Shown here: piece by piece, positions 4,586 through 8,466 of the stretch
How the letters are laid out: each line of letters begins with the position of its first letter
Numbering within the stretch: the stretch's first letter is position 1
NCBI GenBank assembly: GCA_029258885.1
Contig: JAPDJW010000011.1
Span: forward strand, 1-10,979
DNA: 10,979 nt
Reading direction: 5' to 3'
DNA from: Thermoproteota archaeon
GTDB lineage: Archaea > Thermoproteota > Thermoprotei > Thermofilales > B9-G17
The notes under the pieces: generated by a model
Database searches by the model: none
What the model was told of the DNA's origin: nothing
What the model saw: the letters and a program-made list of their open reading frames with translations, nothing else
Translations under genes and position numbers: made by a program

Positions 4586-5782
4586 ATGTTATATGCACTA
4601 AAGAAATTTAATCAAAAACTAAATAAATTAAATATACAGCACATTAAAGTTAATGAAATCTTAAACTCAGGAAATACAGGTAATCCTAAGCAGATACTGG
4701 TTGACGGCGCCTATAGGATAATAGAGTTAGAAAGTGGTAAAATAGTTATTCAGAATGATGTGGTGAGAGTTTTTCAATCAAATAAAAATCACTTATATCC
4801 TCTTGCTCCACTATTTGAATATAGCGAATGTCAGGAGATCTTTATACGAGTAGATAAAATTTCCACAACGATAAATGGTAGGAGATACGTCGTAGAGGTT
4901 AAGGACTATGATGTACAGGAATTTATTGAAAATCTTGCAATTTTTCAGGGTGTAAATTTAAATCTTACAGTGCCCTATGCAGAAACTTTTCTTAAGAGGA
5001 AAAACTATATATGGAGGATATACCTAAAGCTTCGAGAGAAAGAAATTATTGCTACAAGAATAACGCGTATTCCTTTACTAACAGATTATGATCCCCTACT
5101 AGCAGCTAGGCTTATACTTACCGTGCTAAAACCTAATGTGTTGTGTATTTGCGGTCCCACAGGCAGCGGTAAAACCACTCTATTGAACTCAATTATTTTA
5201 GGAATCCACTACCTTTATCCCTACCTAAGAATCTGCGTTATAGAGCAGGTAAGAGAACTAATTTTGCCTCCATCTGCGCTGGTATCTAGGGCTGTAGCAT
5301 ACGGTGATTATGACGTAACCTTCTTGCTTAGGCAGGCCTTCAGGTATGAACGCCCGTCAATAATTGTGCTTGGTGAGTTGCGTAGCGAAAATATAGAGAC
5401 ATGGTTTGAGGTTAGTAAAGGATTAGCGAGTATAACGACCATGCATGCAAAAGATCTAGATGATGCACTATCCTTTATGCTCTTTTATCTGAGAGCATAC
5501 TATCCTAGAGCTACGCTAGAAGACTTATATTCAATCGTCAACGCTTTCGTCTTTATGAGAAAAATAGAGACTGCTTCTTCCATAATGAGAAAAATTTCCA
5601 GTTTTTACATCGTTAATAATAATAAGGTCGTCAAAGTATATGATGGAAAAAATCACATAAGTGATGAAGACTTCATTAAACTGATAGGTGATGAAACCAT
5701 GGTAGGTGATGCTCGTATTCAATATACTTATATCAAGGATGTATTGTTTAAGGGAAAGCTACAATTTCCTGCTCTCTTTTGA
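4586..5782 (+). CDS. Type II/IV secretion system ATPase (VirB11/TadA/CpaF-like), divergent
   Basis: Walker A GPTGSGKTT, Asp-box-like VIEQVREL, LRQAFRYERP followed by Walker B IIVLGELR, His box TTMHA. N-domain motif YPLAPLF...CQEIFI resembles the family motif of the form GPLxPLLxDxxIxEI. Confidence 0.85.
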   Translation: MLYALKKFNQKLNKLNIQHIKVNEILNSGNTGNPKQILVDGAYRIIELESGKIVIQNDVVRVFQSNKNHLYPLAPLFEYSECQEIFIRVDKISTTINGRRYVVEVKDYDVQEFIENLAIFQGVNLNLTVPYAETFLKRKNYIWRIYLKLREKEIIATRITRIPLLTDYDPLLAARLILTVLKPNVLCICGPTGSGKTTLLNSIILGIHYLYPYLRICVIEQVRELILPPSALVSRAVAYGDYDVTFLLRQAFRYERPSIIVLGELRSENIETWFEVSKGLASITTMHAKDLDDALSFMLFYLRAYYPRATLEDLYSIVNAFVFMRKIETASSIMRKISSFYIVNNNKVVKVYDGKNHISDEDFIKLIGDETMVGDARIQYTYIKDVLFKGKLQFPALF

Positions 5783-6555: not shown

Positions 6556-6577
6556 TGAGTATGAACGATGAAGGTGA
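6556..6577 (+). promoter_or_regulatory. K-turn in the rpl7ae 5' leader abutting the SD (L7Ae autoregulatory element)
   Basis: UGA-GU-[AUGA]-AC-GAU-GA-A gives tandem G.A/A.G pairs, a GAU bulge, a C-G pair at position -1 and a 2-bp C-stem, directly followed by SD GGUGA (6573-6577). Confidence 0.7.
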
Positions 6578-6582
6578 AGGTT

Positions 6583-6960
6583 ATGAACAAGAAGCCATTT
6601 TATGTAAAGTTCGATGTACCAGAGGAATTGGCGGAAAAAGCATATGAAGCAATAAGTATAGCCAGACATAGTGGCAGTATTAAAAAGGGAACCAACGAGA
6701 CAACAAAAGCCGTAGAGAGAGGGTTAGCTAAGCTAGTTCTTATAGCTGAAGATGTCGATCCTCCAGAAATAGTAGCTCACCTACCTCTTCTATGTGAGGA
6801 AAAAAAGATACCCTATATTTACGTTCCTTCGAAAGAAAAACTAGGTAAAGCTGCCGGAATAGAGGTAGCCGCAGCATCGGCAGCAATAATAGATCCCGGC
6901 GATGCTGCCACACTACTGGAAGAGATAATTAAGAAGCTGGAAGAAATCAAGCTAAAATAA
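6583..6960 (+). CDS. rpl7ae: 50S ribosomal protein L7Ae (k-turn binding; core of C/D, H/ACA and RNase P RNPs)
   Basis: [45 protein letters not shown] signature. The true start is probably ATG 6583 (SD GGTGA 5 nt upstream) rather than 6568. Confidence 0.98.
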
Positions 6961-6987
6961 GCAATAACTATGTAATCATCGCCACGC

Positions 6988-7041
6988 TCATTGCTCCAGA
7001 CCGTCATCATAAAATATGTCAGACAGAAACTAAATGCTCAC
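6988..7041 (-). ncRNA. Candidate box C/D guide sRNA with atypical (permuted-looking) box order; one guide is complementary to the tRNA-Trp anticodon loop
   Basis: Minus strand: GTGAGCA - TTTAGTTTCTGT (12 nt) - CTGA - 8 nt - ATGATGA - CGGTCTGGAGCA (12 nt) - ATGA. The second guide pairs over 10 nt with GCUCCAGACC (typical crenarchaeal tRNA-Trp arm, recalled), and the +5 rule lands on C34. Confidence 0.65.
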
Positions 7042-7085
7042 GCTACCTATTATTTTTATTCCCTTTCTAACATTAGCTGAAGTTA

Positions 7086-7820
7086 CTAATGTTTCACCAC
7101 GATACCTAATCCTGGTACAATTTCAAATTCAAACTCTTGAGGATGAACTGGTCGCCATCTCATTTTCCTGATGAAGAGAGTTCTTTTGAACTCTTTATTA
7201 ACTCTCTTTAGTCCGAGGACTATGACTCCAGTAGCTAAAAACTCTTCAACTCCGAATCGACTCAGCGAATTACTATTTGTCGGTATTTCAGAGGTAATGA
7301 CAGTAGTTGTTCCAATATTTCTCTCTATAGATATTATTAGGCTTCTAATATATTCTCGTGTCCAAGCTATATCCCTTTCACCAGTAATTAAAGGAGCTAT
7401 TGGATCTATAACCAGCCTTTGAGCTCTAATTCTCTTTACCTCATAGCTTATATCTCTAATGATAGACTTTACAGTAACATCTAATGGTCTATCCTTAAAT
7501 CTTTCAGTAAACTCCGGTAACAATGTCATTATGCTTAGCTTTCCACTATTGATTAAATGATTTAGATCCCATCCAAAAGCTTTTGCCCCTCTCATCAAAT
7601 CATTAACGTCTTCGTCTACGAGAATATATACGCCTGGCTCGTTAATCATTGCACCATAAATAAGGTAATTTAATGAAAATATAGTCTTTCCAGTACCCGT
7701 TTCCCCTGCGACTAAATACGTTCTACCCTTTATAAAACCTCCTATAATTTCATCTAGACCTTTAATTCCGGTAGGAACTATGGGAAGCTCTTCTTCAATT
7801 ACATTTTCTTGGCTCTTCAT
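7086..7820 (-). CDS. Single-domain KaiC/RAD55-like (RecA superfamily) ATPase
   Basis: VPTGIKGLDEIIGG, Walker A GETGTGKT, RLVIDP, GVEEFLATGVIVL, RTLFIRKMR. Start probably ATG 7820 (GAGTGA upstream); the ORF track uses GTG 7829. Confidence 0.92.
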   Translation of the reverse strand: MKSQENVIEEELPIVPTGIKGLDEIIGGFIKGRTYLVAGETGTGKTIFSLNYLIYGAMINEPGVYILVDEDVNDLMRGAKAFGWDLNHLINSGKLSIMTLLPEFTERFKDRPLDVTVKSIIRDISYEVKRIRAQRLVIDPIAPLITGERDIAWTREYIRSLIISIERNIGTTTVITSEIPTNSNSLSRFGVEEFLATGVIVLGLKRVNKEFKRTLFIRKMRWRPVHPQEFEFEIVPGLGIVVKH

Positions 7821-7821
7821 A

Positions 7822-7995
7822 TTAATCACTCATCTTCAGCTTATTAAATTCCTTCTCAGTAAGCATTAATATAGCTATCCTAACGAGATGAGAAATTGAT
7901 GAAAAATAGCCTAAGTTAACTAAACGTTTCATCAACTCTAAGTCTCTTTGGGTTACCCTGAAGGATATCCTCCTTATGCGAATATTTTCAGACAT
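7822..7995 (-). CDS. Ribbon-helix-helix (CopG/MetJ/Arc-type) transcriptional regulator, 57 aa
   Basis: Manual translation MSENIRIRRISFRVTQRDLELMKRLVNLGYFSSISHLVRIAILMLTEKEFNKLKMSD*. Alternating beta-strand ISFRV, helix A, then the GYFSSISHLVRIAI turn/helix B pattern. The stop is 1 nt before the KaiC-like ATG. Below the ORF-track size cutoff. Confidence 0.85.
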   Translation of the reverse strand: MSENIRIRRISFRVTQRDLELMKRLVNLGYFSSISHLVRIAILMLTEKEFNKLKMSD

Positions 7996-8340: not shown

Positions 8341-8365
8341 GAGATATCAACATTTAGGAGTATCG

Positions 8366-8414
8366 ATGATGAAGGCTGGTAATACGGAGATATGAAGAAT
8401 GACACCAGAACTGA
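8366..8414 (+). ncRNA. Box C/D 2'-O-methylation guide sRNA; both guides target the 16S rRNA 530-loop region
   Basis: C ATGATGA (8366-8372), 12-nt guide AGGCTGGTAATA, D' CGGA, C' ATGAAGA, 12-nt guide ATGACACCAGAA, D CTGA (8411-8414). Guides are complementary to the recalled crenarchaeal 16S segment UCUGGUGUCAGCCGCCGCGGUAAUACCAGC. Confidence 0.85.
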
Positions 8415-8466
8415 TATTTATTTGAATTATTTGGAAAGCATTTCTAAATTTTACACTAGAGAATAT

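Follow-up and report, generated by a model that had tools for sequence, protein, structure and literature searches.

A predicted guide RNA locus for C34 of tRNA-Trp with its perfect D box ahead of its perfect C box

Main

The window, a 10,979-nucleotide stretch of DNA from a Thermoproteota archaeon, contains on its minus strand a locus that is very probably a guide for C34 of tRNA-Trp (Table 1). This function is well supported and is not new as a kind. The full archaeal C/D box set is present (ATGATGA, CTGA, ATGA and GCGATGA) but in the atypical order D-C-guide-D'-C', and the odd order recurs across many related genomes, so that on sequence comparison it is no one-off rearrangement. We prefer, at about even chance, the architecture D(CTGA)-8 nt-C(ATGATGA)-guide-D'(ATGA)-5 nt-C'(GCGATGA), in which one guide would lie between two locally closed kink motifs. 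Two such motifs around one guide place the D box before the C box in gene order.

Table 1 Coordinates of the tRNA-Trp guide locus and its parts in the window
Feature	Position	Strand	Remarks
Whole feature		minus	between convergent L7Ae gene (6568-6960, plus) and KaiC-like gene (7829-7086, minus)
AT-rich element AATAAAAATAATAGG	7046..7060	minus	candidate TATA box of the sRNA gene
TAGC		minus	between AATAAAAATAATAGG and GTGAGCA
GTGAGCA	7035..7041	minus	weak C-like box, terminal in the sequence-only reading; second GA missing
TTTAGTTTCTGT	7023..7034	minus	orphan 12-mer between GTGAGCA and CTGA
CTGA	7019..7022	minus	perfect D-type box 5' of the C box
CATATTTT	7011..7018	minus	8-nt loop, closing the proposed CTGA/ATGATGA K-loop
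ATGATGA	7004..7010	minus	perfect C-type box
Guide CGGTCTGGAGCA	6992..7003	minus	12 nt between ATGATGA and ATGA, antisense to the tRNA-Trp anticodon arm
ATGA	6988..6991	minus	D-type box setting the N+5 ruler
GCGTG	6983..6987	minus	5-nt loop of the proposed ATGA/GCGATGA K-loop
GCGATGA	6976..6982	minus	C-type box, proposed partner of ATGA; both GA steps present
Tail TTACATAGTTATTGC and T-run TTATTTT (6960-6954)	6954..6975	minus	possible 3' end

Box set and order of the locus

The boxes, the spacings and a repeated hexamer, AGCGTG (7044-7039 and again 6988-6983), described in an earlier note made without database searches, hereafter the sequence-only reading, are all present on the minus strand. 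The perfect CTGA does precede the perfect ATGATGA, and the locus lies, as had been claimed, just downstream of the KaiC-like gene, at a distance of 40 nt. The perfect C and D boxes are connected by an 8-nt loop, not by the RNA ends, and no good terminal C/D pair joins the 5' and 3' ends, the GTGAGCA/ATGA pair being weak and out of K-turn register. Among the 38 canonical C/D sRNA genes that a pattern search recovered from this genome, none (0/38) has CTGA within 8 nt 5' of the C box, D'-C' spacers are mostly 3 nt, and several use ATGA as D'; the box-quality pattern of the Trp-guide locus is unusual in this company.

As partner of ATGA we prefer GCGATGA because it carries both GA steps, lies 5 nt away, is the heptamer found in family f2, and has a counterpart in G001, a genome of the same family as the source, where ATGATGA follows at an equal 5-nt distance and CAATT stands in place of GCGTG. 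The same heptamer occurs after the Trp unit in f2 (L036-L039), as the 5' C box in Acidilobus/Desulfurococcales and as C' of the intron-borne guides of f12; in L033 (G047), too, the Trp guide is followed by ATGA. The sequence-only reading had offered, as its alternative, an RNA with C' = GCGATGA and a decayed D box. Its C' holds up as the conserved partner of ATGA, whereas the D box is more likely the intact CTGA 5' of the C box. GTGAGCA is probably a relic or a chance occurrence and, taken with the upstream 12-mer TTTAGTTTCTGT, would be a decayed 5' half or, again, chance.

An Rfam cmscan of the window at E up to 1 returned no family at the Trp-guide locus, and elsewhere only two sRNA-like matches and a tRNA-Met. 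Gene searches that require C...D order miss D-first genes, and Rfam is blank here. The two sRNA-like genes, at 5657-5712 (+) and 8362-8416 (+), give sub-threshold matches to sR5, sR1 and snoPyro_CD, and the former lies inside the 3' end of a T2SSE-type ATPase ORF (4586-5782). A further motif of the window, CTGA-14 nt-GCGATGA at ~8058-8034 (-), upstream of the promoter of a ribbon-helix-helix (RHH) gene, has the same two boxes as the K-loop module and no guide; a role as K-turn in the RHH leader was rejected, the promoter lying 3' of the motif.

Pairing with tRNA-Trp and the search for a second target

Nowhere else in the 2.1-Mb genome is CGGTCTGGAGCA perfectly complemented; only two sites come within one mismatch, and one of them (C3:100712) falls in the anticodon arm of a tRNA at G000:C3:100664-100757. 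The anticodon stem-loop of this tRNA, UCCGG-CUCCAGA-CCGGA, displays the anticodon CCA, and it is the single tRNA-Trp of the genome; the target arm named by the sequence-only reading, GGCUCCAGACCG, is indeed part of it. Guide CGGTCTGGAGCA and tRNA-Trp GCUCCAGACCG form 11 contiguous base pairs, with one A.G mismatch beside the D-type box. By the N+5 rule the fifth guide nucleotide 5' of ATGA stands opposite C34 in a G:C34 pair, which bears out the claimed placement on the wobble base, and the core of the guide is conserved in the class. The replacement of CTGA by ATGA after the guide, together with the adjacent mismatch, could mean a lower activity. This tRNA-Trp has no 37/38 intron and hence no cis-acting, intron-borne guide of the euryarchaeal type, so the locus is predicted to supply in trans the Cm34 guide that would otherwise be missing. 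The D-loop of this tRNA is enlarged by an insertion of ~13-17 nt that is probably a non-canonical intron and that makes ARAGORN miscall the tRNA as tRNA-Ser(gga).

The other candidate guide, TTTAGTTTCTGT, which the sequence-only reading could not assign, has no evident target among stable RNAs. Its only perfect complement genome-wide is the locus itself, none of its 18 one-mismatch sites (0/18) falls in rRNA genes or ARAGORN-listed tRNA genes, and 16S and 23S rRNA contain no site with at most one mismatch and at most three non-Watson-Crick pairs. The 12-mer 3' of GCGATGA likewise has no plausible rRNA target. Second guides are also poorly kept among Thermofilales-type orthologs, where they are not conserved. 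Untargeted and unconserved second guides are consistent with one functional guide.

Genes for the RNP proteins are at hand, with L7Ae in the window and fibrillarin and Nop5 adjoining on contig C3. Sequence features, target match, conservation and these protein genes together suggest a pathway in which expression, RNA ends, box pairing and the methylation itself are predicted steps. The locus would encode a minus-strand box C/D sRNA of the Pyrobaculum sR26-type family, with the functional core CUGA-8 nt-AUGAUGA-guide-AUGA-5 nt-GCGAUGA and both kink motifs being K-loops. If it works like the archaeal C/D RNPs already characterised, L7Ae would bind the kink motifs, a Nop5 dimer and fibrillarin would then assemble, the 12-nt guide would pair with the tRNA-Trp anticodon arm, and fibrillarin would methylate the 2'-OH of the nucleotide opposite the fifth guide base 5' of the D-type box, converting C34 to Cm34.

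Conservation of the guide in the class

Orthologs were found by pattern search, a BLAST-type DNA search of 60 relatives having yielded only short guide matches. The 15-nt guide-plus-box pattern GGTCTGGAGCNNTGA, consisting of the 10-nt guide core GGTCTGGAGC followed by NNTGA, occurs in 57 of 120 genomes of the class, mostly once per genome, as opposed to a single match for the reversed control. Named records with the motif include Pyrobaculum oguniense, Thermoproteus, Thermofilum, Infirmifilum, Thermofilaceae and Thermofilales MAGs, Acidilobus and Desulfurococcales. The nearest relatives are G001, a MAG record labelled 'uncultured Thermoproteales archaeon', and a metagenomic sister, L095. In the window the guide core is antisense to GCUCCAGACC and is followed by a D-type box that sets N+5 on C34, as in sR26-type RNAs, and the recurrence of core and D-type box across the class places the locus in the family that includes Pyrobaculum sR26.

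That the locus encodes no functional RNA, and is a chance cluster of short motifs in a convergent intergenic spacer, is hard to credit. Rfam is silent at the locus and the fold of the locus is no more stable than those of shuffled sequences; C/D sRNAs, however, are not expected to fold stably, and neither the abundance of the 15-nt pattern relative to its control nor the specific complementarity to the tRNA-Trp anticodon arm fits such an explanation.

Layouts across orthologs

We compared 62 distinct orthologs, which are kin sequences, so that the counts that follow are descriptive and not independent tests. Layout B, C-g1-D'-~3 nt-C'-Trp-D, is found in f10 (Pyrobaculum and Thermoproteus records), f5 and Acidilobus/Desulfurococcales. 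Layout A, C-Trp-D'-spacer-C'-g2-D, is found in f2, with C' = GCGATGA, in f3 and in part of f4 g5, f4 being the family of Thermofilaceae-labelled records. Layout W has a D-type box, a gap of 2-10 nt, C-Trp-D', a further gap of 2-16 nt and a C-type box, with no downstream D box; this D-first arrangement describes 23 of the 62 orthologs, including the window, G001, several f4 genera and Vulcanisaeta-sized genomes. A core of D-type box, loop, C-type box, Trp guide and D-type box is common to all layouts, the f12 introns described below included.

Both flanking boxes of layout W occur well above background. Twelve of 19 lineages have a D-type box 2-10 nt before the box on the 5' side of the Trp guide (background 7.8%), and in 40 of the 62 orthologs a C-type box comes 2-16 nt past the box on the guide's 3' side (background 6.2%). 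The gap between CTGA and the C box, 8 nt in the window, is 3-8 nt in relatives or is occupied by a hairpin. In L050 and L102 a hairpin fills the stretch from CTGA to GTGATGA and spares exactly 3 nt as a bulge ahead of the GA, the textbook K-turn design, and in Caldivirga-sized genomes xTGA and GTGATAG are split by a hairpin with compensatory changes (GGGG/CCC versus GGGUC/GACCC). Among the Vulcanisaeta-sized genomes, eight that closely resemble one another (L061-L068) all keep the upstream ATGA, whereas its 4-nt spacer varies. These hairpins, the compensation and the invariant ATGA argue that the flanking boxes are functional partners. L069 also has the upstream ATGA, with a 3-nt spacer.

Where the Trp guide occupies the 5' unit, orthologs that have the upstream D-type box tend to lack the downstream one (24/2 versus 7/7), an association that is descriptive only because the sequences are related. 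In genus g3 only G002 has an upstream ATGA, and only there is the downstream CTGA missing; its TATA box is shifted to 22 nt 5' of that ATGA. Two observations speak against the preferred architecture. Two Thermofilum-sized genomes have both the upstream ATGA and the downstream CTGA. In the lineage of G001, divergence of the flanks has spared a CAGA that lies 18 nt past the downstream C-type box, and this lineage may be canonical with a long second spacer.

One arrangement closest of all to that of the window, CTGA-6-GTGATGA-Trp-TTGA-6-GCGATGA in L105/L163, was dropped as support because its contig is binned as a deltaproteobacterium and its ORFs have no Pfam family or tblastx match to this genome, and also because a long ORF on the opposite strand covers the match with its 5' part. 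A stretch that the upstream region shares with G005 (15/16, TTAGAAAGG-AATAAA) was likewise set aside: its score of 26 is near the 99.9th percentile of the genomic null, which we do not count as significant after ~60 comparisons. A second D-first candidate in the source genome, at G000:C1:233612 (-), reads CTGA-GTT-GTGAGGA-GCCGTTGGGCGG-CTGA-TGCG-GTGATGA with no downstream D box, and its best match to a stable RNA is a two-mismatch site in 23S rRNA.

Readings with canonical ends

The layout B orthologs bear on an unlikely rival to the preferred architecture, namely a canonical, non-permuted sRNA in sR26 order. Here GUGAGCA would serve as C and CUGA as D', with an orphan D' guide between them; AUGAUGA would be C' after an 8-nt spacer, and the Trp guide would be the D guide ahead of D = AUGA, the following GCGAUGA being fortuitous. 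The order C-g1-D'-C'-Trp-D is that of f10, f5 and Acidilobus/Desulfurococcales, four of the last group combining perfect internal boxes with a terminal ATGA, and a GCGU/GCGU terminal pairing is predicted. Counting against layout W, precisely the canonical 12 nt separate GTGAGCA from CTGA, which completes a canonical reading homologous in order to f5, f10 and Acidilobus. Yet GUGAGCA lacks a second GA, its position 6 is unable to pair with A1 of AUGA, the predicted terminal helix is out of K-turn register, and the box begins merely 4 nt past the strongest AT-rich element (7060-7046). Furthermore, no C-like box stands 12 nt 5' of the upstream CTGA in G001 or L095, the nearest relatives, a stronger C-type box lies 5 nt after AUGA, and we estimate that [AG]TGA falls 11-13 nt 5' of CTGA by chance in ~2% of cases.

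The hexamer repeat had led the sequence-only reading to a circular permutation, in which the gene is broken at the D'/C' junction and the ends of GUGAGCA...AUGA, joined through AGCGUG, recreate AUGA-GCG-UGAGCA and thus a canonical sRNA. We consider this very improbable. A 6-mer shared between two 12-nt windows arises by chance in ~1.4% of random trials, and the repeat by itself is weak evidence. In favour of the proposal, canonical sRNAs of this genome often show ATGA-3 nt-GTGAxxx, circular and permuted C/D sRNAs exist (PMC3491384), circular permutation between sRNA families has been reported (PMC6009581), and an RtcB gene is present in the genome. On the other side, GTGAGCA, which the proposal takes as C', is without counterpart in G001 and L095, and ATGA has a better conserved partner in the C-type box 5 nt on. 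The two halves of the locus are dissimilar beyond the hexamer, a local alignment run as a tandem-duplication test scoring 14 where shuffled sequences averaged 13.7 and 47% of them did as well. The flanks show no helix or bulge-helix-bulge between them, and the locus has no significant fold. A search for PF09414 RNA ligases gave weak matches only, in 609-aa and 543-aa frames, and no clear dedicated ligase of that family, which is no firm guide to the capacity for circularisation. Orthologs in the same order with ordinary ends, which the sequence-only reading had itself named as grounds for refutation, occur in f5, f10 and Acidilobus/Desulfurococcales. The four Acidilobus/Desulfurococcales orthologs in layout B with perfect internal CTGA/GTGATGA and terminal ATGA make strong internal and weak terminal boxes a trait of the family, not evidence of permutation. 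As speculation, the AGCGTG repeat perhaps marks a duplication of the region before the C box, leaving an old decayed 5' box and a newer 3' one.

Predicted promoter and transcript ends

For the locus, the promoter was placed by A/T position alone, from a positional A/T profile; a TATA weight matrix trained on the regions upstream of the 38 sRNA genes failed to settle on an informative motif. The A/T peak of the 38 sRNA genes lies at -35..-26 of the first box. At these positions the A/T content is 100% for a start at CTGA, 70% for GTGAGCA and 40% for ATGATGA, and the AT-rich element AATAAAAATAATAGG stops 23 nt short of CTGA. An AT-rich element placed as in the 38 sRNA genes favours layout W. In L048, L051 and L045, AATATAGG or TTAATAGG lies 21-23 nt 5' of the upstream CTGA. 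A start at GTGAGCA could be served by CTAATGTTAG, 70% A/T, and the AT-rich element may be nothing but the terminator of L7Ae, whose mRNA its plus-strand T-run probably ends. The transcript would probably start a few nucleotides 5' of CUGA from the AT-rich element, or be trimmed from KaiC read-through, and probably end near the T-run at 6960-6954, which overlaps the L7Ae stop codon on the opposite strand.

The start position also bears on a canonical gene that has lost its terminal D box, C(AUGAUGA)-Trp-D'(AUGA)-C'(GCGAUGA)-spacer-D, in which the upstream CUGA is irrelevant and the RNA is poor or the gene decaying. We consider this distinctly unlikely. Such a gene would resemble f2, in which L036, L038 and L039 read C-Trp-CTGA-spacer-GCGATGA-13 to 20 nt-CTGA and L037 (G002) has lost the final CTGA; the window, too, has no CTGA within 40 nt downstream of GCGATGA. 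But the guide is intact, no other Trp guide occurs in this genome, which is 99.9% complete and whose tRNA-Trp has no intron guide, a start at ATGATGA has the lowest A/T content at -35..-26, and the upstream D-type box recurs in many lineages, the D-less G002 included.

On the plus strand, a transcript of L7Ae that runs past its stop codon first meets a T-run at 7049-7059, TTATTTTTATT, so that the 3' UTR of L7Ae (region 6961-7059) would be wholly antisense to the sRNA and would hold a perfect copy of the sRNA's target sequence. This would leave room for cross-talk between the mRNA of a C/D RNP protein and a C/D RNA. The adjacency of L7Ae and the sRNA was not seen in relatives.

Gene neighbourhood and intron-borne relatives

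In the window the RHH gene (7822-7995, -) and the KaiC-like gene (7086-7829, -) precede the sRNA, which lies downstream of KaiC. The Trp-guide sRNA is linked to small RHH and KaiC-like genes in several genera (loci L036-L039, L045, L047, L050 and L102) in a different order, the sRNA lying upstream of these genes on the same strand. In L048 and L051 the downstream C-type box, GTGATGA/ATGATGA, overlaps the start of an ORF that by eye resembles the RHH gene, a likeness not confirmed by tblastn.

In f12, a family without a free-standing sRNA, the Trp guide lies inside the 37/38 intron of tRNA-Trp in eight of nine genomes (L169-L176), with the layout TTGA-GC-N3-5-GCGATGATGA-guide-GTGA/GAGA; a 5' C box is not obvious in these introns. 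This intron-borne layout resembles that of the bathyarchaeial records L119, L126, L127 and L152. Elsewhere the order of guides is swapped: the 9-mer GGTGAGCCC is a guide 5' of the Trp unit in the Thermoproteus-like g30 of f10 (L082-L089) and 3' of it in the Vulcanisaeta-sized f14 g38 (L061-L069).

Discussion

More broadly, and somewhat short of an even chance, much of the order and related lineages may either carry a naturally D-first, single-guide Cm34 RNA or make a transcript that is canonical only once circularised. The D-first lineages of that reading, proposed just as tentatively, would include the Thermofilaceae-labelled records and the Vulcanisaeta- and Caldivirga-sized genomes, with K-loops or hairpin K-turns and no second guide strand. 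If the D-first form is true, the minimal RNP is two kink motifs and one guide. If the circularised form is, the orthologs would be three linearisations of one cyclic box order, with the window a possible intermediate that has a decayed 5' C box. Should the preferred layout be confirmed, one guide and two locally closed kink motifs would be enough for a natural C/D RNP, and the orthologs would be a tangible set of genes for tracing how circular permutation of C/D genes comes about. The literature, searched in full text, yielded no account of a conserved D-first single-guide family.

Comparison with known systems

The closest known RNA is Pyrobaculum sR26, which Lui et al. 2018 predicted to target C34 of tRNA-Trp and of which a 'transposed' form, Pca sR26a, has the Trp guide moved to the D' position (PMC6009581). 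Similar to the window, the Pyrobaculum and Thermoproteus orthologs carry the core GGTCTGGAGC, in their case followed by CTGA, and have the same predicted target at C34. They differ in being canonical, C-g1-D'-3 nt-C'-Trp-D, with no C-type box after D, whereas in the window a perfect D box precedes a perfect C box, ATGA replaces CTGA, a C-type box follows 5 nt on and there is no clear 5' C box. The Trp guide of the window occupies the canonical D position only if GTGAGCA is taken as the C box, and the comparative data favour GCGATGA as the partner of ATGA.

A box D upstream of box C is also known from the permuted sRNA24 of Nanoarchaeum equitans, for which Randau 2012 proposed that only the circular form restores the box order and detected the circular RNA by inverse RT-PCR (PMC3491384). 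The likeness lies in the order itself, CTGA (7022-7019) before ATGATGA (7010-7004) in the window. As opposed to sRNA24, a single gene of another organism with another target and a demonstrated circular RNA, the D-first layout of the window is common to many lineages and known from sequence, and circularisation would be unnecessary for a linear RNA with two K-loops. The Pyrobaculum families sR56 and sR57 are themselves related by circular permutation (PMC6009581), and the Trp/GGTGAGCCC pair, in opposite order in f10 g30 and f14 g38, recalls them; permuted genes of that kind keep canonical terminal C and D boxes, which the window does not.

In euryarchaea the intron of pre-tRNA-Trp encodes a box C/D guide for Cm34, according to the studies cited in PMC7994747 (Clouet d'Orval et al. 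2001; Singh et al. 2004). The target nucleotide and the RNP machinery are the same as those predicted here, and within the class itself the f12 introns have xTGA-GC-N3-5-GCGATGA directly 5' of the guide (8/9 genomes). The guide of the window differs in being free-standing, on another contig than tRNA-Trp and predicted to act in trans, and in having no second guide for position 39. The locus thereby links free-standing sR26-type and intron-borne tRNA-Trp guides inside one class.
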